Shown in pieces: positions 3,893 through 55,609 of a stretch of 64,000 bases of DNA (position 1 is the first letter of the stretch; each line of letters opens with the position of its first letter). This DNA comes from Candidatus Staskawiczbacteria bacterium. Lineage in GTDB: Bacteria > Patescibacteriota > Minisyncoccia > Minisyncoccales > Staskawiczbacteraceae. Where the stretch lies: contig CAIMWV010000015.1 in NCBI GenBank assembly GCA_903845295.1, forward strand, positions 6,354-70,353, written 5' to 3'. Both the position numbers and the translations under genes were made by a program. The notes under the pieces were generated by a model. It made no database searches, was not told where the DNA came from, and saw only the letters and a program-made list of their open reading frames with translations.

Positions 3893-4603
3893 ATGAATAT
3901 AAAAATAATTTACGAAGATGATGATGTTCTGGTTGTTGATAAGCCGGCAGGAATTGTAGTTTTCCCGGAGGGTCAAACCAAAGAAAATACCCTGATTGAC
4001 GCTTTAATTGAAAAATATCCCGAGTTAAAAAACACTGGAGAACAGCCAAGATACGGAATTGTGCACAGATTAGATAAAGAGACTTCCGGGGTTTTACTGG
4101 TGGCAAAGAACAATGAAAGCTTGATTTTTCTGCAAAAACAGTTTAAAAATAGAGAGGTAGGAAAGAAATATGTTTGCTTGGTTGAAGGAACGATAAAAGA
4201 GGACAAAGGAGAGATCAAAACTTTAATTGCCAGATCTCCTAAAGACGGGAGGAAACAAAAAGCTTACTCAGAAAATGGACCTCACCCAAAATCAGCCAGG
4301 GAGGCTATAACAGAATATGAGGTTTTAGAAAGATTTAAAGATTATACACTATTAGAAGTTGAGATTAAAACAGGCAGACGCCACCAAATACGGTGTCATT
4401 TTTCTTATTTACATCATCCGATTGCAGGAGATAAATTATACAGTTTCAAAAATTCAAAGATTCCAAAAGGCCTGATGAGGCAATTCCTGCACTCGGCATA
4501 TTTAAAAATCCAATTGCCAAGTGGAGAAATTAAAGAATTTAAATCAGAGCTGCCGGAAGAATTAAACAACGTATTAAAAAATTTACAGCCGGGCGAACAA
4601 TAA
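3893..4603 (+). CDS. RluA-family 23S rRNA/tRNA pseudouridine synthase (RluD-like)
   Basis: Track ORF 3824..4603 trimmed to MNIKIIYEDDDVLVVDKPAG. Catalytic motif HRLDKETSGVLLVAK. Confidence 0.85.
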   Translation: MNIKIIYEDDDVLVVDKPAGIVVFPEGQTKENTLIDALIEKYPELKNTGEQPRYGIVHRLDKETSGVLLVAKNNESLIFLQKQFKNREVGKKYVCLVEGTIKEDKGEIKTLIARSPKDGRKQKAYSENGPHPKSAREAITEYEVLERFKDYTLLEVEIKTGRRHQIRCHFSYLHHPIAGDKLYSFKNSKIPKGLMRQFLHSAYLKIQLPSGEIKEFKSELPEELNNVLKNLQPGEQ

Positions 4604-4692
4604 TGAATTCGGCGTAAATGAGGCATTAATGTATTCGATATATCAGATGGCCTCATTTCCGAAGTAGTCTTATTCGCTTCGCTCACAAGACC
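4592..4692 (+). promoter_or_regulatory. Two-hairpin leader RNA motif, copy A (abuts rplS ATG)
   Basis: Stem cgtaaatgaggc/gcctcatttccg around a conserved loop aatgtattcgatatatca, then hairpin gtcttat..acaagac, then c-ATG. Homologous to copies at 17996-18096, 28149-28251 and 55112-55201. Confidence 0.6.
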
Positions 4693-5127
4693 ATGATAAC
4701 ATTATTAGAAAAATTCAATAAAGACCAATTAAAAGATTTGCCGGAATTAAGGCCTGGCGATACAATTAAAGTATACCAGAAAATAAAAGAAGGAGATAAA
4801 GAAAGAATCCAGATTTTTGAAGGGTTAATTATTGCTAAAAAGCACGGTAAAGGCATTCCGGCCACAATAACCGTAAGGAAAGTTGTTGATGGAATTGGAG
4901 TTGAAAGGGTTTTCCCCATTCATTCCCCCTCTTTAAGCAAAATAGAGGTTGTAAGGCACGGAAAAGTCAGGAGATCAAAACTTTATTACTTAAGGACAGC
5001 TAAAGGACAAAGAGCCAAGCTGAAGAAAAAAGATTTTGCCGTAGCCATTGCCGAAGAACCAGTTACAGAATCGACAGCTCCAGAAAGCCCAACCGAGACC
5101 AAAACATCTGAAAAAAAGTCTGCATAA
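4693..5127 (+). CDS. rplS: 50S ribosomal protein L19
   Basis: 144 aa. [29 protein letters not shown]...[19 protein letters not shown] is typical L19. Acidic/Thr-rich C-terminal extension. Confidence 0.95.
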
Positions 5128-16462: not shown

Positions 16463-17995
16463 TTACCTGGCATATTCTATTACTCTGTTTTCCCTAATAA
16501 CCACAACTTTGACTTCCCCGGGGTATTTCAATTCTTCTTCAATTTCTGCTGCTATCTGCTTAGCTATTTTTGCAGCTCCCAAATCGTCAACCCTGTCTGA
16601 TTTCACGAATACGCGTATTTCCCTTCCCGCCTGGATTGCATATGTTTTTTCAACGCCTTCAAATTTGTTTGCAATATCCTCTAAATCTTTCAATCTCTGC
16701 AGATAATTTTCCAACGTATCCTTTCTGGCTCCCGGGCGCGAACCAGAAATTGCATCGGCTGTTTTCACGATTACAGCCTCCAATGTTTCTGCGGGATAAT
16801 CTTCATGGTGGGCCCTCATTGCTTTTATAATGGCTTCCGACTCGCCAAACTTTTCCAAAATCTTAATTCCAATTTCAATATGGGAACCCTGTATCTGCTG
16901 GTCAATTGCTTTGCCAATATCGTGCAAAAGTCCTGCTCTTTTTGCAATCTGGCTGTTTGCCCCCAGTTCTTCTGCCATTGTTTCTGATATCAAAGCAACC
17001 TCCATTGAATGCATCAAAACATTCTGGCCATAGCTTGTTCTGTAATGCAATCTGCCTAAAATCTGGATGAGCTTCTCGTTTAATCCGATAACCCCTACCT
17101 CATAAGATGCTTTTTCACCGGCTTCTTTTATTTTGACTGCAATTTCCGCCTTGGCTTCTTCAACTTTTTCTTCAATTTTAGCCGGCTGGATTCTGCCGTC
17201 TGCAATTAATTTGTCCAAAGCAACTTTGGCAATCTGCCTTCTGATCGGATTGAATCCTGAAATAACAACTGACTCGGGAGTTTCGTCAACAATCAGCTCA
17301 ACGCCGGTTAATTTTTCGAATGCCCTGATATTTCTGCCTTCTTTGCCGATAATCCTGCCCTTTAATTCTTCATTGGCGAGAATTACTGTTGTTGTTGTCA
17401 GTTCCTGCGCCTGAGAAACCGCGCATTTTTGGATTGCTAAAGTAACAATTTCTTTTGCCCTATTTTGCAATTTTTCCTGGTTTCCCTCCTCCAGCTTTTT
17501 CATCCTCGCTAAAATTTCTTTTTCGTTTTCAATTTCAACTAATGCCAGCAATTCTTTTTTGGCATCCTCTCTTGAAAGCTGGGCTACCTTTTCCAGTTTG
17601 CCTTCCGCCTCGAGCCTCAATTGTTCCAAGCTTTCTTTTATGGTTTTTAGCTTTTCTCCTTTAGTTTGAAGCTCTTTTTCTTTTTCCTCAAAAGAAATGA
17701 TTCTTTCAGCCAGCAAACTTTCTCTGTTTAATAAAAGCTGTTGGGCTTTTAAAAATTCCCTCCTTCTTTCATCAACGTCTTTTTGAGCCCTTTCTACAAT
17801 GTCGGAAGCCTTTTTCTCTGCATTCCTCACCATTGCAGTCGTCTCTTCTTTAACGTCTATAACTTTTTTCTGCAATTTCGCTTCAAGCGTGCCGGCTCTT
17901 CTTTTTGCCAGGTTTTGCCTGACATAATATCCCAAAATAGAACCTGCAATCAAAGCCACTGCAGCTATAATTACCGATAAAAATGTTTGATCCAC
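16463..17995 (-). CDS. rny: Ribonuclease Y
   Basis: 510 aa. N-terminal TM helix, coiled coil, KH domain (GRIIGKEGRNIR), HD domain (LLHDIGK). GTG start at 17995. Confidence 0.95.
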   Translation of the reverse strand: MDQTFLSVIIAAVALIAGSILGYYVRQNLAKRRAGTLEAKLQKKVIDVKEETTAMVRNAEKKASDIVERAQKDVDERRREFLKAQQLLLNRESLLAERIISFEEKEKELQTKGEKLKTIKESLEQLRLEAEGKLEKVAQLSREDAKKELLALVEIENEKEILARMKKLEEGNQEKLQNRAKEIVTLAIQKCAVSQAQELTTTTVILANEELKGRIIGKEGRNIRAFEKLTGVELIVDETPESVVISGFNPIRRQIAKVALDKLIADGRIQPAKIEEKVEEAKAEIAVKIKEAGEKASYEVGVIGLNEKLIQILGRLHYRTSYGQNVLMHSMEVALISETMAEELGANSQIAKRAGLLHDIGKAIDQQIQGSHIEIGIKILEKFGESEAIIKAMRAHHEDYPAETLEAVIVKTADAISGSRPGARKDTLENYLQRLKDLEDIANKFEGVEKTYAIQAGREIRVFVKSDRVDDLGAAKIAKQIAAEIEEELKYPGEVKVVVIRENRVIEYAR

Positions 17996-18096
17996 GGTCT
18001 TGTGAGCGAGGCGAACAAGATTGCTTCGGAAATTAGACCCTGATATATCTTATACATTGTGGGTCTAATTTACGCTGAACACCTTACGCTTCGCTG
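17996..18096 (-). promoter_or_regulatory. Two-hairpin leader RNA motif, copy C (abuts rny GTG)
   Basis: Sense strand: cgtaaattagaccc-acaatgtataagatatatca-gggtctaatttccg, then gtcttgt-tcgcctcgctc-acaagac, then c-GTG. Confidence 0.6.
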
Positions 18097-26738: not shown

Positions 26739-28148
26739 TTATTTAGCTTCAGTTGGATTTTCCGCGGGCTTTTCTTCAACAGCCGCATCCACTTCGCTTG
26801 GTTCTGCCGGTATTGCCTCTCCGTCTGTCCCAACTTTTTCTCCTTCGGCTTCGCTCGGGGCGGGTTCTTCCTTAGTTTTTTTAGCCTTGCCCCGCGTAGC
26901 CTTGGCGGAGTGGGGTTTCTTTTCCTTTTTTGGTTTTTCCTCTTTTTTATCTTCCTTTTTTTCTTCTTCCTTGGCAACTTCTTCCGCTTCAGCGCCCTCG
27001 GCGATTTCCTCTGCTGTCTTTTCTGCTGTTTTAATATCTATTTTCCAGCCGGTTAAATTGGCGGCCAGACGGACATTCCTGCCGTCTTTGCCGATGGCCA
27101 ATGAAAGCTGGTCTTCTGGCACAAAAACCGTGGCTGTATTTTTATCTTCAACTTTTACCCCGACGATTTTTGCCGGAGATAACGCATTAGCAATAAATTT
27201 TTCCGGCTTTTCTTCCCAAGAAATAACATCAATTTTTTCTCCGCCTAATTCATTTATAACTGCCATGATTCTTGTTCCTCTCTGACCAACACAAGCTCCA
27301 ATTGGATCAACTCCTTCTTCATTTGAAACAACTGCAATTTTTGTACGAAATCCCGGCTCTCTGGCAATTGACTTTATCACAACAACTCCGGAAGCGACTT
27401 CCGGCACTTCCAGCTCGAATAATTTTGAAATTAATTTTGGATAAGCCCTTGAAAGCATTACAACCGAACCTTTCGGAGTATCCTCCACTTTCATTATATA
27501 AAGTTTCAGGCGCTGGCTTGGCCTGTAAAATTCTCCGGGAATCTGTTCATCCCTGTTTAAAATTCCCAATGTTTTCCCGATGTCCACAAAAACCGTATGG
27601 CCCTCGACTCTCTGCACAATTCCTGAAATAATTTCCCCTTCTTTTGACCTGTATTCTGAAGAAATTGTTTCTTTTTCCGCTTCCCTTATTTTTTGCAATA
27701 TGACCTGCTTTGCAGTCTGGGCCGCAATCCTGCCATAATCCTGCTTTGAAACCAAAGGAATTTCAATCTCTTCCCCAGCCTTGATTTTCGGATAATCTTT
27801 TTTGGCATCAGCCAGCATTATATGTTTTTCGGGATTAAAAACATATTTTTTAGGCGGCTCTTCGCCTGCTCTCGCCTCATCCTGCGGAATCATTTTATTT
27901 TCTTTCATTTCTTCAATTTCCTCGTCTGTATAAAGCATTGAGTTATCCACAACTAATTTTATCTGCCAAAACTTAACATCGCCCGACACCGGGTTGAATT
28001 TGGCCTTAATTTTCTGTCCCTTTTCGCCGTAGTCTTTTTTATAGGCAGTGGCGATTGCCGCCTCAATTGTTTCTATCACCTTTTCCGGTGAAATTCCTCT
28101 TTCCTCTGCTATTTGAGCCAATGCTCCCTTAAAACCTTTTATGTCCAT
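26739..28148 (-). CDS. nusA: Transcription termination/antitermination factor NusA with Lys/Glu-rich C-terminal tail
   Basis: 469 aa. NusA N-domain, S1 domain, two KH domains (GACVGQRGTRI, AIGKDGRNVRLA). Confidence 0.95.
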   Translation of the reverse strand: MDIKGFKGALAQIAEERGISPEKVIETIEAAIATAYKKDYGEKGQKIKAKFNPVSGDVKFWQIKLVVDNSMLYTDEEIEEMKENKMIPQDEARAGEEPPKKYVFNPEKHIMLADAKKDYPKIKAGEEIEIPLVSKQDYGRIAAQTAKQVILQKIREAEKETISSEYRSKEGEIISGIVQRVEGHTVFVDIGKTLGILNRDEQIPGEFYRPSQRLKLYIMKVEDTPKGSVVMLSRAYPKLISKLFELEVPEVASGVVVIKSIAREPGFRTKIAVVSNEEGVDPIGACVGQRGTRIMAVINELGGEKIDVISWEEKPEKFIANALSPAKIVGVKVEDKNTATVFVPEDQLSLAIGKDGRNVRLAANLTGWKIDIKTAEKTAEEIAEGAEAEEVAKEEEKKEDKKEEKPKKEKKPHSAKATRGKAKKTKEEPAPSEAEGEKVGTDGEAIPAEPSEVDAAVEEKPAENPTEAK

Positions 28149-28251
28149 GGTCTTGTGAGCGAGGCGAACAAGACTACTTCGGAAATGAGGCCATCTGATA
28201 TATCGAATACATTAGTGCCTCATTTACGCTGAACTCATTATTCGCTCACCG
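28149..28251 (-). promoter_or_regulatory. Two-hairpin leader RNA motif, copy B (abuts nusA ATG)
   Basis: Sense strand: cgtaaatgaggc-actaatgtattcgatatatcagatg-gcctcatttccg, then gtcttgt-tcgcctcgctc-acaagac, then c-ATG. Confidence 0.6.
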
Positions 28252-29191: not shown

Positions 29192-29522
29192 TAAGCCCTC
29201 CTCCCTTTTCCTGCCTGCGGCTGTGTGCCCAGCAATTGCGGCACATGCCGCTGCCGCCATCGGGGTTTGTCTCCGTAAAATCGTTTTTGCACTTCCCGCA
29301 CTTGCCCTCCCTGTTCAATTCCTTCCATTTCATATCTATCACGATGTATTTCTTCTCTTCCCCTCCGCCGTAATATTTCATCACAACGAAGGATATGAAA
29401 AACATCGTCAGCGCGCCTTCAATCAACTGGTCTCTGACAGGCAACCCTCGCGTGAGAGTTAACAATCCCACAGAAACCGCAGTGATTGAAAGGGCGTAAA
29501 GAATCGCTTTCCACGTCTTCAA
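29184..29522 (-). CDS. Membrane protein with C-terminal CxxC...CxxC zinc-ribbon, 112 aa (cassette 2, gene 1)
   Basis: TTG start with AGGAGG 6 nt upstream. Two TM helices, then KCGKCKNDFTETNPDGGSGMCRNCW. Confidence 0.65.
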   Translation of the reverse strand: MKTWKAILYALSITAVSVGLLTLTRGLPVRDQLIEGALTMFFISFVVMKYYGGGEEKKYIVIDMKWKELNREGKCGKCKNDFTETNPDGGSGMCRNCWAHSRRQEKGGGLNV

Positions 29523-29572
29523 GTCGCGCCTCCTTTCAAAGAGCTGTTTAAGTTTGAACCTTAACCAGTTTC

Positions 29573-34833: not shown

Positions 34834-36348
34834 CTACGTTACCCAATATTTTTGTTTCGTCATTTCATCTTCTTTGGTTTCAATTTCCGATTTTTCTTCT
34901 TTTGATTTTTCTGCCATTTTTTTCAATTCTTTATCCGGCAATTTTCCTAATTTCAAAGCCTCTTTTTCCAAGAATTCTTTGGTATTTTTTTTAGGATCAT
35001 CTAAAACGTAACCCAATAGCACATCTAGGGTCTGGCCTATTCTTGGTCCTGGCTTTATGTTTAAAATCGACACCAGATCATTTCCGTTGATTTCCAGCAT
35101 TTTGGCAGAAATGGGGTCTTTGGAAACTTTTTCAATCAGATATTTTAAGTGCCTTAATTTATACGGTTCGGCTTTCGGCACCCCCGACCCTATTCTGTCA
35201 GCCTGGCGCACCTGCAAAAGCTCTTCCATGTTTTCCAACCCTACATTTTTTACCAATCTCCGCACAGATGCATCTTTGACCTCGTCAACATTGTAATAAA
35301 ATAAATGGTATCTTACAAGCTTGGTTATTTTCTCAACATCTTTTTTGGGAAATTTCAAATTATTTAGAATTTGGAAAGCCATCCTGGCCCCCACAATTTC
35401 ATGGTTATAAAAAGTCGCGTTTTCCCCCTCCCCGGATTTAGCTTTAGGTTTTCCAATGTCATGCAACAAGGCGGCCAATCTCACATGCATATTAAATTTT
35501 TTCTTTGCAGTATATTCCAAAGATTTTATTGCGTGCTGGTAACAGTCGTAAATATGGTGTTTGTTCTGCGAAACGCCGTAATTATCCAGAAGCTCGGGCA
35601 CAATATATTTTAACAGCCCTAGTTCCCTCAGCAATTCGATTCCCGCCGAAGGCCCTGAGGACATTCGGCTGAGCTCAGTCGAAGCCCCTGTCGAAGGGTC
35701 TGCCATTATTATTTTTACAAATTCGTCCCTGATTCTTTCTTTAGAAATCGCTTCCAGCCAGATGCTATTTTTTTTAATTGCCTCGGCGGTATTTTTTTCA
35801 ATTGCAAAACCCTTCGACCCGCTCAGGGCAGGTCCAAGCGTTGTTGCAAACCTTACAGCCCTCAGCATTCTTAAGGCATCTTCATCAAATCTTTCCTCCG
35901 GATTTCCGACAGTTTTTATTATCTTGTTTTTCAAATCTTTTTGTCCATCAAATAAATCAACAATTTTCTTTTTCTCATCCATCGCCATCGCATTTATGGT
36001 AAAATCCCTCCGGCTTAAGTCATCCTCAAGAGTTTTGGCATATTTTACTTGGTCAGGATGTCTTTTATCAGAATATTTTGCCTCAAGCCTGTAAGTTGTA
36101 ATTTCAATTTCCGCCAATTCAGGGCTTTTGCTGCCGGTTCTTGCGGTAACTGTCAAAAAATTATTTTCATAAAAACTATTGGGAAACACTTTTTGGATTT
36201 CTTCGGGCTTAGCATTAGTTGTAACATCCCAGTCTTTCGGTTCTATGCCAAGTAAAAAATCGCGCACGCATCCGCCCACGACATACGCCTCGTAACCTGC
36301 TTTTTGCAAATCTTGGATTATTTTTTTTACTTCTTTAGGAATAGCCAT
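34834..36348 (-). CDS. cca: CCA-adding enzyme / poly(A) polymerase-family nucleotidyltransferase with HD domain
   Basis: 504 aa. GGCVRD...DWDV head domain, RDFTINAM, HD motif LLHDIGK. Contains two in-frame G+C-rich inserts. Confidence 0.85.
   Translation of the reverse strand: MAIPKEVKKIIQDLQKAGYEAYVVGGCVRDFLLGIEPKDWDVTTNAKPEEIQKVFPNSFYENNFLTVTARTGSKSPELAEIEITTYRLEAKYSDKRHPDQVKYAKTLEDDLSRRDFTINAMAMDEKKKIVDLFDGQKDLKNKIIKTVGNPEERFDEDALRMLRAVRFATTLGPALSGSKGFAIEKNTAEAIKKNSIWLEAISKERIRDEFVKIIMADPSTGASTELSRMSSGPSAGIELLRELGLLKYIVPELLDNYGVSQNKHHIYDCYQHAIKSLEYTAKKKFNMHVRLAALLHDIGKPKAKSGEGENATFYNHEIVGARMAFQILNNLKFPKKDVEKITKLVRYHLFYYNVDEVKDASVRRLVKNVGLENMEELLQVRQADRIGSGVPKAEPYKLRHLKYLIEKVSKDPISAKMLEINGNDLVSILNIKPGPRIGQTLDVLLGYVLDDPKKNTKEFLEKEALKLGKLPDKELKKMAEKSKEEKSEIETKEDEMTKQKYWVT
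35642..35699. repeat. Compound G+C-rich mini-element (inside cca; encodes DPSTGASTELSRMSSGPSAG)
   Basis: cccgccgaaggccctgagg...gagctcagtcgaagcccctgtcgaaggg. Confidence 0.6.
35810..35829. repeat. G+C-rich mini-element copy (inside cca, opposite orientation; encodes ALSGSKG)
   Basis: cccttcgacccgctcagggc. Confidence 0.6.
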
Positions 36349-36443
36349 CTTAATTGAATTTTGAATTTAGTATTTTGAATTTTGAATGGAATTTAGAATA
36401 TTGAATTCTGGATTCTTTATTCTATTCTGGATTCTGACTTCAG
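36349..36443 (-). repeat. AT-rich AGAAT-repeat upstream module, copy 1 (abuts cca ATG)
   Basis: The sense strand ctgaagtcagaatccagaatagaataaagaatccagaattcaatattctaaattccattcaaaattcaaaatactaaattcaaaattcaattaag-ATG is homologous to 56307-56406. Confidence 0.6.
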
Positions 36444-36475
36444 AATACTATATTTTAATCATATTATCCTAAAAC

Positions 36476-36504
36476 TTGTGTTTTTTCAATTTTTTATGTA
36501 AAAT
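36476..36504 (+). promoter_or_regulatory. Promoter of tRNA-Arg(TCG) and the pilin-like gene
   Basis: TTGTGT, 17 nt, TGTAAAAT (extended -10). Confidence 0.4.
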
Positions 36505-36533
36505 AATACAATTATTAGCATTTTTAATTTCGT

Positions 36534-36605
36534 GCCCCTGTGTTGAAATGGATATCATCTTTGCCTTCGAAGCAAAGGTTGAGGGTTCGAGTCCTTCCAG
36601 GGGCA
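36534..36605 (+). tRNA. tRNA-Arg (anticodon TCG)
   Basis: Acceptor gcccctg/caggggc, anticodon arm tttgc-cttcgaa-gcaaa, T arm gaggg-ttcgagt-ccttc. Confidence 0.9.
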
Positions 36606-38493: not shown

Positions 38494-40641
38494 ATGGCAG
38501 TGAAAGATAAGTTCGAAATCAAAGTGGGTGAAAAACCCATAATAATTAAAACTACAAACTGGACGGAGCAGGCGTCCGGTTCTTGTTTGGTCCAGTGCGG
38601 GGAAACAGAAATTCTGGTAACCGCTGTCCTTTCTCCGTTTACAAGGGAAGGAATGGATTATTTTCCTTTAACGGTTGAATACGAGGAAAGGTTTTATGCT
38701 GCGGGAAAAATATTCGGCTCGCGCTTCATGAAAAGAGAAAGCCGGCCGACAGACGAAGCAGTTTTGAATGCGAGAATGATTGACAGGGCAATAAGGCCTT
38801 TATTTCCGAAAGATTTCAAAAAAGAAGTACAGGTTGTTGTCACTTGCCTTTCATGGGATGGAGAAAATGACCCAGATATTTTAGGCATGGTCGGAGCATC
38901 TTTTGCTTTATCAATTTCAAATATCCCTTGGAACGGGCCTTTAGGAGCCATAAGGGTCAGCAGAGTCAACGGGGAATGGATGTTCAATCCAAGCTACAAC
39001 CACAAAAAAGGAAGCGATATGGACTTAACATTATCGGCCATTGAAAGGGACGGAGAAATTTTAATCAACATGATTGAAATGGGAGCTAAAGAAGTTTCAG
39101 AAAAAGATGTTTTGCAGGCTTATGAGGTCGCCAAAAAAGAATTGAAAAAAATAATCGACGTCCAGATTCAGGCGGTAAAAAAAATCGGCAAAACAAAAGA
39201 TGAATTTATGCCCGCGGTTGAATCAGATATTGATAACGAAATAAAAGGATTTTTGGGAGATAAATTGGAAAAAGCGGTTACCGATGCGCCGAATCAGGAA
39301 AAAAATCTTGGGACCACTGAAACATTGAAGCAGGAAATTATAAAATATCTAGAGGAAAGGCATCCCGGAGAAGGAAAAGAAAAACAGGTTTTGGCTTTTG
39401 TCGAGAGAGAAATTGAATCTATTATTATAAAAAATATAATCGAAAAAGACCACAGGCCGGACGGCAGAAAATCAACCGAAATAAGGCCCTTATCGTGCGA
39501 AGTCGGTGTTTTGCCCAGGACCCACGGCTCAGGGGTTTTCTACAGGGGTTTGACAAGGGTGCTTTCAATTTTAACTTTGGGCGGGCCGGGAGACCAGCAA
39601 ACATTGGAAGGCATGGAAATTGTCGGAAAGAAAAGATTTTTGCATCATTATAATTTTCCGCCATTTTCTTCCGGAGAAACGGCTCCTATGAGAGGCCCGA
39701 AAAGAAGGGAAATCGGCCATGGGGCTTTGGTTGAAAAAGCATTGTTGCCCGTAATCCCCGATCCTGAAAAATTTCCTTATACGATAAGAATTGTTTCTGA
39801 AGTTGTTTCTTCAAACGGCTCAACATCACAAGCTTCTGTTTGCGCCTCAACTATCGCTTTAATGGATGCCGGAGTGCCGATTAAAGAACCTGTTGCCGGA
39901 ATTTCAATTGGTTTGGCAAAGGATGAAAAATCCGGAAAATATAAAGTTTTAACTGATATCCAGGGCCCCGAAGACCACTTCGGTGACATGGATTTTAAAG
40001 TTGCAGGAACTAAAAATGGAATCACCGCAATACAAATGGACGTTAAGATAGACGGCATTGATAAAAAAATTATAGAAGAGGCTTTAGACAGGGCAAAAGA
40101 TGCAAGATTAAAAATACTTGATATAATAAAGAAAGAAATACCTGAGCCTAGGAAATCTTTATCGCCCTATGCCCCGAAAATATTTATTTTGACGATAAAC
40201 CCTGCAAAAATCGGCGAGGTTGTAGGCCCTAAAGGAAGCGTGATAAATAAAATAATTGAAGAATGCTCGGTAACAATTGATATAGAAGATACGGGCTTGG
40301 TATTTATTACAGGCCAGGACGAAACCGGCGTTGAAAAAGCCGTGAACTGGATTAAGGGAATTGTAAGAGAAGTCCAGGCTGGCGAAGTATTCCAGGGAAA
40401 AGTTGTAAAAATTATGGACTTCGGAGCCTTTGTTGAAATATTGCCGGGAACAGACGGACTGGTACATATATCAAAATTCGTCCCCTACCAGTTGAAATCC
40501 GTAAAAGACATCGTGAAAGAAGGCGACACAATACCGGTGAAAGTAATGTCTGTAGATGAATTGGGCAGGATAAATCTTTCAGCAATTGACGCGGGATTCA
40601 AACCAAAAGAGCCCAAAAAAGGATTCTTCGAAAAAAAGTAA
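38494..40641 (+). CDS. pnp: Polyribonucleotide nucleotidyltransferase (PNPase)
   Basis: 715 aa. Two RNase PH domains, then KH and S1 domains (GEVFQGKVVKIMDFGAFVEILPGTDGLVHISK). Confidence 0.95.
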   Translation: MAVKDKFEIKVGEKPIIIKTTNWTEQASGSCLVQCGETEILVTAVLSPFTREGMDYFPLTVEYEERFYAAGKIFGSRFMKRESRPTDEAVLNARMIDRAIRPLFPKDFKKEVQVVVTCLSWDGENDPDILGMVGASFALSISNIPWNGPLGAIRVSRVNGEWMFNPSYNHKKGSDMDLTLSAIERDGEILINMIEMGAKEVSEKDVLQAYEVAKKELKKIIDVQIQAVKKIGKTKDEFMPAVESDIDNEIKGFLGDKLEKAVTDAPNQEKNLGTTETLKQEIIKYLEERHPGEGKEKQVLAFVEREIESIIIKNIIEKDHRPDGRKSTEIRPLSCEVGVLPRTHGSGVFYRGLTRVLSILTLGGPGDQQTLEGMEIVGKKRFLHHYNFPPFSSGETAPMRGPKRREIGHGALVEKALLPVIPDPEKFPYTIRIVSEVVSSNGSTSQASVCASTIALMDAGVPIKEPVAGISIGLAKDEKSGKYKVLTDIQGPEDHFGDMDFKVAGTKNGITAIQMDVKIDGIDKKIIEEALDRAKDARLKILDIIKKEIPEPRKSLSPYAPKIFILTINPAKIGEVVGPKGSVINKIIEECSVTIDIEDTGLVFITGQDETGVEKAVNWIKGIVREVQAGEVFQGKVVKIMDFGAFVEILPGTDGLVHISKFVPYQLKSVKDIVKEGDTIPVKVMSVDELGRINLSAIDAGFKPKEPKKGFFEKK

Positions 40642-40738
40642 GCGAATAACAATGAGCTTACCCAGCACTAATTTCCGTTGTAAGTGTGATATAGATTCAC
40701 TAATTATGGAAATTAGTGCTGGGTGCTAGTAAACTCGC
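40642..40738 (+). promoter_or_regulatory. Structured leader with a perfect 17-bp stem, a distant relative of the two-hairpin leader family
   Basis: acccagcactaatttcc (40660-40676) pairs with ggaaattagtgctgggt (40708-40724). The 5' flank gcgaataacaatgagctt resembles copy B. Ends at ATG 40739. Confidence 0.45.
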
Positions 40739-42271
40739 ATGCAGAATAAATATCTTAAAATTTTATTAATTGCATTAATCATTGCTTTTATTGTTCCACA
40801 AATAACCTTGGCTGCCTGGTATAATCCGTTCAGCTGGCACTTTTGGGGCAATTTTTGGAACTATTTTTTCCACAAACAAACGCCTGTGACACAGCAAGTT
40901 CCGCTGACGTCGGGAACGCTTAGAAATGCAACTATCACATATCCTAATCCATACGATACCTCTAAAAATGATACTTTCACTCTTAGTGGAGGCCATGCCA
41001 TAATTTATGATGCTGGAAATATAAAGCCCCGCGCTTATGATGTGGCTGCAACTGCTGTCGGTAATCTCAATAGCGATGGCATGGCTGAAGGAGTTATTGG
41101 GATTTATCAAGGATATGGCGCAAACATAATCGTACCAATCGTTTTTGTTTTTTCTGATAAAAATGGAGTGCTGACACAAATTGATTCTGTTTTGCCCGAT
41201 GCGTCAATTTGGAATAGCGAAACCCAGATAAAATCTATTTCCATAAATAATGGTGTTCTTTCAGTTAATCTTCTTGTCCTAGCTGAAAAAGACCAATCAT
41301 TGCCCCATTACCAGCAACAAGCATCAATAGCAAAAACTGTCCAATATAAACTTATAGATGGAAAATTGATTTTACAACCAACCGACCAAACCGCCGGCTG
41401 GAAAACATTCGTAGGCGTAAACGTGGGCGTTTCGTTTTCGTTTGAATATCCTTCTTCTTGGACTTATCAAAAAGTTAGCTGCAATTTAGATTACATCGCG
41501 TTTTGTCCTCTTGTCGGAAATAGTCCGTCAAATTGTGGCATGACTTGTGCAATGAACAGCCCTAATGCATCGATTTATCTTTACACATTCCAAGGGAGTC
41601 CGGCTATCGGCGTAGCTTCTCAAAATATCAAATATTGGGCAGAACCAAATGCAAGCTTAAATTTGTGGGATAATAAATATAAAGAAATTTATACAGAAAT
41701 GATTTCCACTTTTAAATTTATAACACCAACCGACCAAACCGCTGGCTGGAAAATATACACGAACTCTCAATATGATTTTTCATTATCGTATCCATCCGAT
41801 TTTGCAAACGTAAATGATTTAACGGCCACACAGCAAAATTCACTTCAAACATATATGGAAGTGTGCTTTCGTAACAATAACAATCCGAACGAAACAGATT
41901 TTTGTTATATAGGCAACCAAACATCGGATGGATTCGCAGCTGCTTCTCTAAATATAGCCGCCAGTGCATCCACGACTATGCAAGATTGCGAGAAGTCAGA
42001 AGGATATGGACCAGATGGTGAACAAGCCCAAACCCAACCGACAACGATTAATGGTATTATTTTTTACAACGCTCAACTTGCTGACGCTGGTCTAGGCCAT
42101 TATGTATCGACAGATTCTTACAGAACATATCACGGAGGAACGTGTTACACAATAGATTTAAATATTGAGTCTGACCGAGGCGTTTCAGAAAAAGGACTCA
42201 GTGCTGATTTTTCTTCCATGATGCACTCTAAGTTAAAATCAATTATTTCCACTTTTAAATTTACTAAATAG
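40739..42271 (+). CDS. Secreted hypothetical protein with two DQTAGWK...STFKF modules
   Basis: 510 aa with a signal/TM segment. Internal repeats start at PTDQTAGWKTF and PTDQTAGWKIY. Ends STFKFTK, like 18801..19559. Confidence 0.65.
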   Translation: MQNKYLKILLIALIIAFIVPQITLAAWYNPFSWHFWGNFWNYFFHKQTPVTQQVPLTSGTLRNATITYPNPYDTSKNDTFTLSGGHAIIYDAGNIKPRAYDVAATAVGNLNSDGMAEGVIGIYQGYGANIIVPIVFVFSDKNGVLTQIDSVLPDASIWNSETQIKSISINNGVLSVNLLVLAEKDQSLPHYQQQASIAKTVQYKLIDGKLILQPTDQTAGWKTFVGVNVGVSFSFEYPSSWTYQKVSCNLDYIAFCPLVGNSPSNCGMTCAMNSPNASIYLYTFQGSPAIGVASQNIKYWAEPNASLNLWDNKYKEIYTEMISTFKFITPTDQTAGWKIYTNSQYDFSLSYPSDFANVNDLTATQQNSLQTYMEVCFRNNNNPNETDFCYIGNQTSDGFAAASLNIAASASTTMQDCEKSEGYGPDGEQAQTQPTTINGIIFYNAQLADAGLGHYVSTDSYRTYHGGTCYTIDLNIESDRGVSEKGLSADFSSMMHSKLKSIISTFKFTK

Positions 42272-53653: not shown

Positions 53654-54808
53654 TTAGTTGGGCGTCCTCTTCAAGGGATCCCATTTAGGATATTTGCCAT
53701 TTCTGGCAAAGTGGTCCGCAGCAGCTTGCTCATACGGCGCTGGATCCACCGGCATATTGGATCTTCCTCGCTGACGAGGTCCTTGGCCGCCTTGCTGTCC
53801 GTCGCGATTTCCACCGCCGCGCTTGCCTTGACCGCCGACTAAGATGCCTGCGCCTCCGCCACCGCCGCCGACGACCGCAGTGGTTGCATTTTCGAGGCCG
53901 TGAACCTCTAGATTTTGACCTCCGGCCTTCAAATAAGCCCTCTTGGCCAATTCGTCCTGCTTCTTGGTAATTTGTTCCGGAGAAGCGCCAGGATGGGCCT
54001 TTTTCCAGGCTTCTAATGCCTGGTTTGTATCATCAAGCCGAGTGGCGCTTGCCGCTGCCTCATGTACGGCGGCCTCTTTTTCCTTCTGGGCCTTGTATGG
54101 TGCCAGTGTGGTGTCCCGCCATCCTGGCGGGGGATCAATGCTGGCCAGTTCCACTGACTCAACCTCAATCCCGTACGTATCCCTCAGCTCAACAATCACC
54201 GAGGGCTTTCCACTTTCGCGGGGGGCATTCATTGCCTCCCACAAACGCTGCCCGAACACTTTCACGGCGCTTCCCGCTGGCACATTCTGGCCAGTAATTT
54301 GCTCCCAAGAAACCTCCGTGAAAACTTGACGCAAAGCTGAGATGACTAGGGTGATCGTCGTGACGTACCAATCGCTGGCCACAAAGAAGGCCTTGGATGG
54401 ATCCGCCATCCGTGCATGCGTCGCGATCACCCCCGTCAAGGGCAACCCATGAGAATCCTCTTCATCCTTGAAGGGGATAGCATATGGGTATCTGGTGCTC
54501 TTAAAGCTGGTGATGTTGGAATCGTCATGATCCTCAACGGTGACGTCGCCGTCATCTTTCACCACACATTTTTTGAACACCATCTTCCTGGAGTAAAGAG
54601 TGTACACTCCTGGCCACCCCAGCCAGTGAAGACCGGGTCCGAGTGTTATGTGGTAGCAGCCCAGCCGCATTACCACCTTGTACCAACCCTGCTCCACCTT
54701 GGTCCAAAGGAAATTGCGCTTGGCAAGCCCGAGGACGGCATAGAAGCCAAGCAAAGCCACCAGCACGATTGCGGCCAGCGACACCAGAAACTCCTCAAAA
54801 AAGTCCAT
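53654..54808 (-). CDS. SPFH/band-7 (flotillin/prohibitin-like) membrane protein with Gly/Arg/Gln-rich tail; G+C-rich cassette 3
   Basis: 384 aa. ATG with GGAGG 6 nt upstream. N-terminal TM helix, a central region with an SPFH-like pattern, coiled coil KAQKEKEAAVHEAAA, tail GGGGGGAG...GKRGGGNRDGQQGGQGPRQRGR. Family call is from pattern memory only. Confidence 0.65.
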   Translation of the reverse strand: MDFFEEFLVSLAAIVLVALLGFYAVLGLAKRNFLWTKVEQGWYKVVMRLGCYHITLGPGLHWLGWPGVYTLYSRKMVFKKCVVKDDGDVTVEDHDDSNITSFKSTRYPYAIPFKDEEDSHGLPLTGVIATHARMADPSKAFFVASDWYVTTITLVISALRQVFTEVSWEQITGQNVPAGSAVKVFGQRLWEAMNAPRESGKPSVIVELRDTYGIEVESVELASIDPPPGWRDTTLAPYKAQKEKEAAVHEAAASATRLDDTNQALEAWKKAHPGASPEQITKKQDELAKRAYLKAGGQNLEVHGLENATTAVVGGGGGGAGILVGGQGKRGGGNRDGQQGGQGPRQRGRSNMPVDPAPYEQAAADHFARNGKYPKWDPLKRTPN

Positions 54809-54971
54809 GTTCCACCTCCAAAAAAAGAGTTAAGCTTCGAATCGTTGATGGTCTGCGCAGGACAATCCCGCGCTAAACCCGTCGCGTAGTAATTTCTGCT
54901 GAAAAAAATCTAGGCAAATCACTACGTGACAGGTTTAAAAGACCATTTTTCTCAATGTTCTTGTTATATAA

Positions 54972-55048: not shown

Positions 55049-55078
55049 TTGCCTATGCTTTTTTATACGTGATATAAT
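55049..55078 (+). promoter_or_regulatory. Candidate promoter of the PrgI/VirB4 operon
   Basis: TTGCCT, 18 nt, TGaTATAAT (extended -10). Confidence 0.4.
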
Positions 55079-55111
55079 AACAAAATAAGTATAATAAAAA
55101 ATTAACAGAAA

Positions 55112-55201
55112 AAGGTGTTCAGCGGAAATTAGACCAGCAATGTATAAGATATATCAAGGTCTAATTTCCGAAGCAAATCTGCTCGCCTCGCTCGCAGACC
55201 C
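55112..55201 (+). promoter_or_regulatory. Two-hairpin leader RNA motif, copy D (abuts GTG of the PrgI-like gene)
   Basis: cggaaattagacc-agcaatgtataagatatatcaa-ggtctaatttccg, then tctgc-tcgcctcgctc-gcaga, then ccc-GTG. Confidence 0.6.
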
Positions 55202-55609
55202 GTGGAACAATATCCTATACCACAATTTATTGAATCAGAGAGCAAAATTATTTCGTTCATGTCATTTAAACAATTTTTTTACCTTGTGGGAGCCGGGCTC
55301 ATCTGTTTTTTCCTGTATTTTATTTTGCCCCGCGTTCTTTTTTTTATAGTTAGCGCTATAATTTTTCTTGCTGCAATAGTACTCGCCTTCGGAACAATGG
55401 GCGGCACTCCCATACTAAATATAATTTTAGGATCGATTGGTTTTTCAATGGGCGGCAAAGATTATACATGGAAAAAGAAGGAATCCCCCTACCCTTTCAA
55501 ACCGATAAAAAGGACTCAGATTAAAAAAATAGAACAAGGCCCTGTTTTACAGGCCCAAACAAGCCAATTAAAAAGAACGCGCACTGCGATAGAAATGCGC
55601 ACTAAGTAA
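55202..55609 (+). CDS. PrgI/VirB3-like small membrane protein of a type IV secretion system
   Basis: 135 aa. MEQYPIPQFIESESKIISFMSFKQFFYLVGAGLI followed by two TM helices. Located two genes upstream of VirB4. Confidence 0.6.
   Translation: MEQYPIPQFIESESKIISFMSFKQFFYLVGAGLICFFLYFILPRVLFFIVSAIIFLAAIVLAFGTMGGTPILNIILGSIGFSMGGKDYTWKKKESPYPFKPIKRTQIKKIEQGPVLQAQTSQLKRTRTAIEMRTK

Follow-up and report, generated by a model that had tools for sequence, protein, structure and literature searches.

A two-hairpin leader module in register with the start codons of housekeeping genes in Staskawiczbacteria-like bacteria

Copies of the module in the window

Analysis of 64,000 nt of DNA from Candidatus Staskawiczbacteria bacterium (assembly GCA_903845295.1, contig CAIMWV010000015.1, positions 6,354 to 70,353 of the forward strand), hereafter the window, revealed four copies of a structured leader module, each in the sense orientation of the gene that follows it. 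The downstream genes are rplS, rny, nusA and a gene of the PrgI family, and in each case bases of the initiation codon form part of the fold. The four copies and their orientation had been reported in an initial annotation of this DNA and were confirmed here by pattern, covariance model and Pfam. The pattern TTTCCGAAG-N9-TCGCNTCGCTC matches all four copies exactly, with 0.03 matches expected from shuffled sequences, while a fifth match with three mismatches (46565) was set aside as chance since it lies within an open reading frame (ORF). A covariance model with 83 members scored the window copies at 100.6-137.8 bits and, with filters off, gave no further significant match in the 64 kb. The Pfam assignments of the downstream genes are L19, RNase Y, NusA and the PrgI family, and a TraG/VirB4-like ATPase is encoded 3' of the PrgI-family gene. 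The called ORF starts are the first in-frame starts, and the N-termini match those of orthologues in relatives.

Copy A (4591..4695, plus strand; 100.6 bits) includes the rplS ATG at 4693-4695, and the RluA-like ORF upstream of it terminates at a TAA (4601-4603) within its 5' flank. Hairpin 1 (P2) of this copy spans 4613..4661 with the arms cgtaaatgaggc and gcctcatttccg and the conserved U.C mismatch, and hairpin 2 (P3) spans 4664..4694 with the loop tcgcttcgctc at 4674-4684. The foot of hairpin 2 is formed by G4664.U4694 and U4665:A4693, A4693 being the first base of the ATG. Copy B (17993..18096, minus strand; 137.8 bits) includes the rny GTG at 17995-17993 and begins with the 5' flank cagcgaagcgtaaggtg (18096-18080). 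Its hairpin 1 lies at 18027..18074 (cgtaaattagaccc and gggtctaatttccg) and its hairpin 2 at 17994..18024, with the loop tcgcctcgctc at 18014-18004 and a foot made of G18024.U17994 and C18023:G17995.

Copy C (28146..28250, minus strand; 117.6 bits) includes the nusA ATG at 28148-28146 and has the 5' flank ggtgagcgaataatgag at 28250-28234. Hairpin 1 was located at 28180..28228 and hairpin 2 at 28147..28177, with the loop tcgcctcgctc at 28167-28157 and the foot pairs G28177.U28147 and U28176:A28148. Copy D (55105..55204, plus strand; 129.1 bits) includes the GTG of the PrgI-family gene at 55202-55204 and the box aaggtg at 55112-55117; a promoter-like TTGCCT-18-TATAAT lies upstream at 55049-55078. 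In its hairpin 1 (55123..55170) a G-C pair replaces the usual U.C mismatch, as had been noticed before. Hairpin 2 of copy D (55173..55203) belongs to a AAAUCUGC/GCAGACCC subtype with three A.C positions; its foot pair is C55174:G55202 and its loop tcgcctcgctc occupies 55183-55193. Comparison of the hairpin 1 stems showed that aaatgaggc/gcctcattt is shared by the rplS and nusA copies and aaattagacc/ggtctaattt by the rny and PrgI-gene copies, so that the grouping given in the initial annotation was swapped.

Two other hairpins were seen in the window. In the nusA leader, a terminator-like hairpin (tgtccgtctgaccacgggca, then a T-run; 28288-28269, minus strand) is placed 3' of a TTGACA-17-TATATT promoter and 5' of the module; it is also kept in relatives that lack the module and resembles an attenuator of nusA. 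Between pnp and the next ORF, positions 40640-40738 (plus strand) harbor a perfect 19-bp hairpin (-42.5 kcal/mol, z = -8.4) whose 5' side, AGCGAAUAACAAUGAG, is like the type I flank of the module and whose arms are like hairpin 1. This had been taken as a looser relative preceding the ATG at 40739; it is without hairpin 2 and scored 11.8 bits (E = 0.37), which leaves its membership in the family unsupported.

Minimum size of the family and searches for known elements

One metagenome scan was carried out with a 19-base pattern; 120 contigs are among the matches listed, and all family counts are lower bounds. About 108 of the 124 listed matches carry the whole motif and 16 are chance matches in GC-rich DNA. 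The scan and the model searches together yielded at least about 110 distinct copies, found in Staskawiczbacteria-like contigs of the Candidate Phyla Radiation (CPR), and the covariance model was built from 83 distinct copies. Homologues of NusA assign the organism of the window itself to Candidatus Staskawiczbacteria (Parcubacteria, CPR). The model also recovered copies in the retrieved contigs (designated L with a number) that do not fit the search pattern. These pattern-independent variants have a short GC hairpin instead of hairpin 1 or extra hairpins within loop 1 or loop 2, and one subfamily carries UCCAGCGAAAAU ... AUUUUCGAGG at the junction.

A small conserved hairpin, approximately cctgcaaccatct..a.a...tatagaaggttg, is nested in the hairpin 1 loop of several copies as a repeat within a repeat (L130:7640-7799; L144:1912-2103, two in tandem; L144:3857-4049; L226:3683-3840; L237:785-940; L159:586-762; L214:2209-2365; L146:4362-4517). 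A different hairpin is inserted in loop 2 of the copy at L202:7764-7928.

Searches of the whole window against Rfam 15 at gathering thresholds returned tRNAs only, and searches with three copies at E-values up to 10 returned noise of at most 18 bits. The L19 ribosomal protein leader (RF00556) gave no match at E up to 10 in window positions 4540-4720. No Rfam match was obtained to small self-cleaving ribozymes (hammerhead, twister, pistol, hatchet, hepatitis delta virus-like), and K-turn and hammerhead cores did not fit the alignment by eye. The boxA of rrn and nut sites (GCUCUUUAACAA-like) was rejected by inspection, the module having GCCUCGCUCACAAGA without the U-tract. No true copy was found when viral contigs were scanned with GTTCAGCGTAAATNAG, nor in a genome-contig scan with the loose pattern GATATATCA-N8-22-TTCCGAAG, whose 117 matches were all due to chance. 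No account of such a motif in Parcubacteria or CPR bacteria turned up in a literature search. The module falls in no described family, in agreement with the initial annotation, which had recognised no known leader or riboswitch class.

Structure of the module and pairing of the start codon

The module is about 105-120 nt long and consists, from 5' to 3', of a purine-rich flank or box (AGCGA.CGAA and/or AAGGYG), a junction, hairpin 1, hairpin 2 and the initiation codon. An extent of about 100 nt, ending 1 nt before the start codon, had been proposed from the window copies, and both boundaries had to be moved. The homology runs 15-25 nt further 5', to the purine box (AAGGUG or AAUGAG) and the AGCGA..CGAA flank, and at the 3' end the foot of hairpin 2 takes in bases 1-2 of the start codon. 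Invariant elements are the junction (UUCAG-CGU ... CCG-AAG), the CU-rich loop of hairpin 2, UCGCCUCGCUC, and the base of hairpin 1 (C-G, G-C and the U.C mismatch). The top of hairpin 1 is dispensable: this hairpin may be short, long or enlarged by inserted hairpins, and the loop palindrome GATATATC, conserved in the view of the initial annotation, is not kept across the family. Variants with short hairpins retain the junction and the U.C mismatch, as is usual where a conserved core carries a dispensable peripheral stem.

Alignment of the 83 distinct copies showed that 94% of cells in hairpins 1 and 2 are paired, compared with 30-41% when the structures were slid by 1-3 columns. Both-side changes occurred in 13 pairs (134 cells) and none of 500 shuffles matched the observed values. 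The proposal of a structured element with true compensatory changes, made from four copies alone, thus holds in about 110. The arms of hairpin 2 are specific for their cognate partners, as judged from a swap test (-5.25 vs -2.02 kcal/mol, in 81 of the 83 copies).

RNAalifold, unaided, carries hairpin 2 into the start codon through the pairs 102:132 and 103:131. The G of CCGAAG faces the U of the start codon (G102.U132) and the following base pairs with the first base of the codon. At pair 103:131 the combinations were C:G in 72 copies, U:A in 7, A:U in 2, and U.G and C.A in one copy each; the pair tracks the first base of the start codon, so that GTG, ATG and TTG starts are each found with the matching partner. 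In 95 of 96 copies the start codon follows the loop UCGCCUCGCUC at exactly 8 nt. Random placement or orientation would have spoken against the linkage to start codons claimed at the outset, and this offset of +8, always in the sense orientation, upholds it. The start codons at the copies are GTG (84), ATG (9) and TTG (3), compared with ATG in 48 of the 56 ORFs of the whole window.

Two loci have lost the canonical start. At L118:15941-15949 the called start is an ATG 6 nt upstream and in frame, located within the 3' arm of hairpin 2, and at L140:7700-7730 the first ATG is found 11 nt downstream of the usual place. A coding leader peptide or upstream ORF was considered and rejected, since a 2-nt indel in the loop shifts the frame between subfamilies and the 5' trinucleotide is often no start codon.

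Probable pairing of the 5' flank with loop 2

The 3' end of the module is invariant while its 5' end is variable, with three types of flank (AGCGA.CGAAUAA-, AGCG-UA-AGGYG and GAG-UA-AGGYG), each complementary to the loop 2 region. The duplex of flank and loop 2 was calculated at -9.2 kcal/mol, compared with -4.9 for shuffled flanks (z = -2.2), and z was below -1 in 90% of copies. The box AGGYG pairs with CGCCU of loop 2 in 83% of cells. In about 30% of copies the box is AAUGAG, which does not resemble a Shine-Dalgarno (SD) sequence, and the box is therefore better explained as a partner of loop 2 than as an SD. Compensating changes between flank and loop were seen in a few pattern-independent copies (CGCCUUGCU/AGCAAGGUG, UUUUGCU/AGCAA and CGCUUC/GAAGUG).

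In the minimum-energy fold the flank also takes over the 5' arm of hairpin 2 to form an outer helix; this invasion was rejected, as the swap test revealed no cognate advantage. Since the outer helix showed no such advantage and the arms of hairpin 2 are cognate, pairing between flank and loop 2, predicted as a pseudoknot or a competing helix, is taken as likely but unproven.

Downstream genes and initiation context

The genes downstream of the module belong to more than 60 distinct families and form a broad housekeeping set with no metabolic or transport theme, so that an operator shared by RNA-metabolism genes, as had been suggested, is not supported. Ribosomal proteins are represented by L11, L19, L31 and S12 (Pfam) and, on the basis of N-terminal sequence, by L10, L28, L33, S14, S18 and S21. 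Other translation genes code for EF-Tu, EF-G, the tryptophanyl- and seryl-tRNA synthetases TrpRS and SerRS and a class II aminoacyl-tRNA synthetase. The chaperones DnaK, DnaJ, GroES and trigger factor were found, together with RecA, SSB and GyrB of DNA metabolism and NusA, GreA and RNase Y of transcription and RNA metabolism. The remaining genes include those for SecG, MraZ, RsmH, fructose-bisphosphate aldolase, an SDR and a NUDIX protein, as well as division genes.

In several operons one copy is present per cistron, as in mraZ/rsmH/ftsL-like (L214), rpsL/fusA/tuf (L202) and ssb/rpsR (L171). In 48 of 112 copies an upstream ORF on the same strand ends 60 nt or less from the junction, leaving no room for a promoter, and a consensus scan for sigma-70-like promoters inside the element found none on either strand. 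A promoter within the element was accordingly rejected, many copies being intercistronic. The per-cistron copies, the adjoining upstream ORFs and the lack of an internal promoter together argue for post-transcriptional action on each cistron.

The genome is poor in SD sequences: any 4-mer SD core precedes 9 of the 56 window ORFs, and the upstream GC content is 0.26. The observation that the copies have no SD was correct, and absence of an SD, being ordinary in this genome, is no special trait of the module. According to a published survey, the anti-SD motif is missing from about half of the Parcubacteria (PMC9297842). Normally spaced, near-perfect SDs were noticed before the ATG at 54808 (ggaggtgg; 54808-54830, minus strand) and before the TTG at 29522 (aaggaggc; 29522-29545, minus strand), which suggests that the ribosome may still have an anti-SD that most genes leave unused. 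No 16S 3' end was present in any retrieved locus.

At L210:5296-7285 nusG is followed by the motif, rplK with a TTG start and a deaminase-like ORF rather than rplA; this order fits the uL1-lacking Parcubacteria, a condition tied to anti-SD loss in PMC9297842. In the window, genes switch from the minus to the plus strand at about 36000-36600, where the cumulative GC skew has its minimum; this may be a replication origin, although the call is uncertain. The GC skew follows gene orientation, and the orientation of the element relative to replication is thus inseparable from it.

Proposed mode of action

The interpretation that we favor, and to which we give about an even chance of being right, is that of a leader module of the sense strand which acts as a gate for translation initiation and has spread across the housekeeping genes of an SD-poor CPR clade. 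The module would be cis-acting on the sense mRNA and would serve each cistron as an initiation gate in a mostly SD-less lineage. In the folded state, the start codon would sit at the foot of hairpin 2 with its bases 1-2 paired to the G-N that follows CCGAA. Initiation would then require opening of the foot, or recognition of the invariant junction and loop by a protein, the ribosome or a condition. Pairing of the flank or box with loop 2, whether as pseudoknot or as competing helix, would set the balance, and the two or three conserved A.C oppositions would keep the foot weak. The module has been copied between genes of the same genome, perhaps through gene conversion or some mobility mechanism, and would persist where its start site works, mostly at highly expressed housekeeping genes. 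In this picture the fold, its fixed register and pairing with the start codon, the set of genes, the positions within operons, the patchy distribution and the copying within genomes are observed, whereas we infer translation as the level of action, the direction of the effect, the flank-loop pairing and a trans-acting factor.

Several observations weigh against this interpretation. On the mRNA strand A.C and C.A oppositions exceed G.U and U.G wobbles, by 29 to 6 among the core pairs when the copies are aligned with MAFFT and by 70 to 31 when they are aligned to the model. Two positions at the hairpin 2 foot are A.C in about 75 of the 83 copies and A-U or G-C in the others, and the AAAUCUGC subtype has three such positions. 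Owing to this excess, folding is more favorable on the complementary strand in 83 of 83 copies (-11.9 vs -5.8 kcal/mol for hairpin 2), an asymmetry opposite to the norm for a purely sense-strand RNA helix. It could reflect a weak, conditional start-codon helix, selection on the other strand (as DNA or as antisense RNA) or loosening by the host of an imposed structure. The conserved wobbles G102.U132 and U.G of the box-loop pairing are features of the sense strand. The pseudoknot-free ensemble gives hairpin 2 a probability of 0.07 because the flank competes for its 5' arm in the outer helix, and covariation between flank and loop 2 is not judgeable in copies retrieved with the search pattern, which fixes loop 2.

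The distribution among close relatives points in the same direction. In six syntenic nusA-rny loci, taken from relatives whose NusA is 75-95% identical, both genes start with ATG behind AT-rich leaders. Even with filters off, no copy was found in five of these loci (17-21 kb), and the sixth has a single copy at another gene (L118:15828-15949). The module is hence dispensable at nusA and rny. In others a copy of a different subtype precedes nusA (L236) or a copy precedes rny (L155).

A related family of leaders, termed type B, adds a further difficulty. Type B has the form GCUCGGCAAyAAACUUUUUUC - variable hairpin - AAAAAGUUyAUUGCCUCGCU, which is a long inverted repeat, and occurs both in relatives without the motif and in some motif-bearing contigs (L298:5486-5557, L298:13829-13901, L291:19283-19357, L140:1234-1315, L198:736-829, L236:1007-1097 and L291:1-80); no Rfam family matches it, and the window contains no copy. 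At its 3' end it is similar to the loop 2 region of the motif, and in relatives 7-8 nt separate the end of the box from the ATG of nusA or rny. Both families have the GCCUCGCU box at about -8 to -17, and this box may be their functional centre. Type B was also found at a tRNA gene, 10 nt upstream of it, and in one case ahead of a terminator-like hairpin, placements that a purely translational role leaves unexplained.

A bolder extension of the gating model, which we consider unlikely, is that the module is a portable, SD-independent initiation device of a Parcubacteria clade. Its junction and CU-rich loop would be read by the ribosome or a dedicated factor, and its marginal start-codon helix with tandem A.C (possibly A+.C) would let a single signal, for instance pH, the energy state or a protein, tune the whole highly expressed set, the module spreading by copying to genes that need it. 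If true, this would be a bacterial counterpart of the shared eukaryotic leader codes (terminal oligopyrimidine motifs and elements like internal ribosome entry sites).

CPR bacteria are uncultured and have reduced ribosomes, and many of their lineages are without an anti-SD. The motif gives a concrete handle on how start sites are chosen and tuned in these bacteria. Should initiation be gated or recruited by the module, it would represent a new kind of shared translational control, and also a case of a regulatory RNA that spreads like a mobile element.

Alternative explanations

The best-surviving alternative, which we nevertheless hold to be rather unlikely, is a selfish repeat resembling miniature inverted-repeat transposable elements (MITEs). 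Its hairpins would serve propagation, under selection as DNA or on the complementary strand, and the repeat would survive by supplying a usable start and a weak helix on the mRNA side. The strand asymmetry and the patchy distribution described above are in keeping with this, as are the small hairpins nested in hairpin 1 and loop 2, the complementary ends, which are like terminal inverted repeats (TIRs), and the occurrence of the type B inverted repeats before a tRNA gene. Copying within genomes is evident. The rplS and nusA copies of the window are 92.9% identical and mutual nearest neighbours, compared with 70% identity between the nusA copy and its orthologous copy in L236. Paralogues that are closer than orthologous copies indicate that the module is copied within genomes with fast turnover, and near-identical regions before non-homologous genes, as known from putative mobile promoters, are present at rplS and nusA. 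Judged from its sequences, the module is therefore also a proliferating repeat, and the initial verdict of a functional RNA rather than a selfish repeat stands as regards structure but not in its exclusion of a repeat, given the patchy loci and the similarity of paralogues.

Random insertion, however, cannot explain why 95 of 96 copies share one orientation, the sense one, and a single register at the start codon. Two comparisons of filled sites (window nusA and rny) with empty sites (L119 and L118) revealed no target-site duplication (TSD), and a 3-bp duplication apparent in the four window copies (ATG..ATG or GTG..GTG) fails in the larger set. The variable 5' end and invariant 3' end are unlike true TIRs, no flanking target is conserved except the start codon itself, no transposase was linked to the module (no search for one was made), and the conserved wobbles are on the sense strand. 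Derivation from IS200/IS605 elements as PATE or REP sequences was rejected, as the flank past the start codon is gene-specific and hairpins 1 and 2 are unrelated in sequence. Integron attC sites were likewise rejected: GTTCAGC and GTCTAAT are off the consensus RYYYAAC ... GTTRRRY by inspection, and the downstream genes are syntenic core genes. At L118:4138-9172, three transposase ORFs of the IS1595 family were observed within 6 kb upstream of nusA, in a relative whose 21-kb locus has just one copy of the motif, at a different gene. If the module were a selfish repeat after all, it would show how a repeat can settle precisely at start codons while essential genes stay functional.

A processing or stabilising module appears quite unlikely to us. 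Cleavage in or near the motif by an RNase (RNase Y, RNase III or RNase J) or by the RNA itself would give each cistron a hairpin-protected or leaderless 5' end. Intercistronic placement with one copy per cistron, in operons of highly expressed genes, would suit such a function, for which hairpin 1 need only be a stable stem. Pair 103:131 would set an exact limit at base 1 of the start codon, and a conserved core, a candidate pseudoknot and many copies per genome are typical of small ribozymes. No Rfam model of a ribozyme or known processing site matched, however, even at E = 10, and the start-codon base that is paired belongs to the 3' strand of its helix, an arrangement that would not suit the geometry of RNase P.

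It is very unlikely, in our estimation, that the module is a riboswitch or sensor in which junction and pseudoknot bind a small molecule, or in which A+.C pairs at the foot of hairpin 2 sense pH or temperature, to switch translation of a growth-related regulon. The module does combine, as riboswitches do, a conserved core with a variable peripheral stem and has the start codon within the switching helix, hairpin 2. There are two competing pairings for the loop 2 region, and the A.C oppositions are conserved with replacement by A-U or G-C in few copies. Against a sensor stand the missing metabolic theme among the downstream genes, the presence of the same genes in sister genomes without the element and the lack of covariation between the competing helix and the 5' arm of hairpin 2.

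An antisense RNA made in cis from the opposite strand and running across the start codon would agree with the better folding of that strand in all copies (hairpin 2, -11.9 vs -5.8 kcal/mol), but it is highly improbable, as its promoter would fall in the variable first codons of more than 100 different genes, the consensus scan shows no antisense promoter inside the element, and the start-codon register and strict sense orientation would have no obvious reason on that strand.

Comparison with known systems

The E. coli rpsO/S15 and alpha operon rpsM/S4 leaders, the latter with a GUG start, are pseudoknotted translational operators of ribosomal-protein mRNAs. They resemble the module in having a folded leader, a possible pseudoknot, an initiation codon inside the fold and control at initiation. 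These operators are single-gene, autogenous and bound by the encoded protein, whereas the module precedes dozens of unrelated genes per genome, is gained and lost between relatives and has no adjacent SD. Confinement to its own operon, as expected of an autogenous ribosomal-protein operator, is contradicted by the more than 60 downstream gene families.

E. coli rpsA has a structured initiation region without an SD, and in T4 gene 38 a split ribosome-binding site is bridged by a hairpin. Initiation in both depends on a specific fold without an adjacent SD, and the module similarly has its SD-like AAGGUG far upstream with the hairpins between it and the start codon. The module differs from them in being multi-copy, and about 30% of its copies carry the AAUGAG box.

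MITEs that are co-transcribed with their neighbouring genes, for example the Correia elements of Neisseria, and REPINs (PMC8049555) are short, structured, multi-copy repeats. Subfamilies, many copies per genome, a patchy distribution and influence on adjacent genes are points of likeness. Such repeats have short targets, insert in either orientation at varied distances from genes and possess TIRs and TSDs, while the module is found in the sense orientation only, in a single start-codon register and with no TSD seen.

Nearest in kind to the module are thus structured translational operators on the one side and gene-adjacent MITEs and mobile promoters (PMC3488235) on the other. In promoter propagation (Matus-Garcia et al. 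2012, PMC3488235), highly similar upstream regions precede non-homologous genes of one genome, as is the case here; what is copied in our family is a structured leader including the start codon, often in an intercistronic position and with no promoter consensus found inside. The module is distinguished from these nearest kinds by a combination of features, namely its fixed start-codon register, its pairing with the codon, its spread over many genes and its placement once per cistron.

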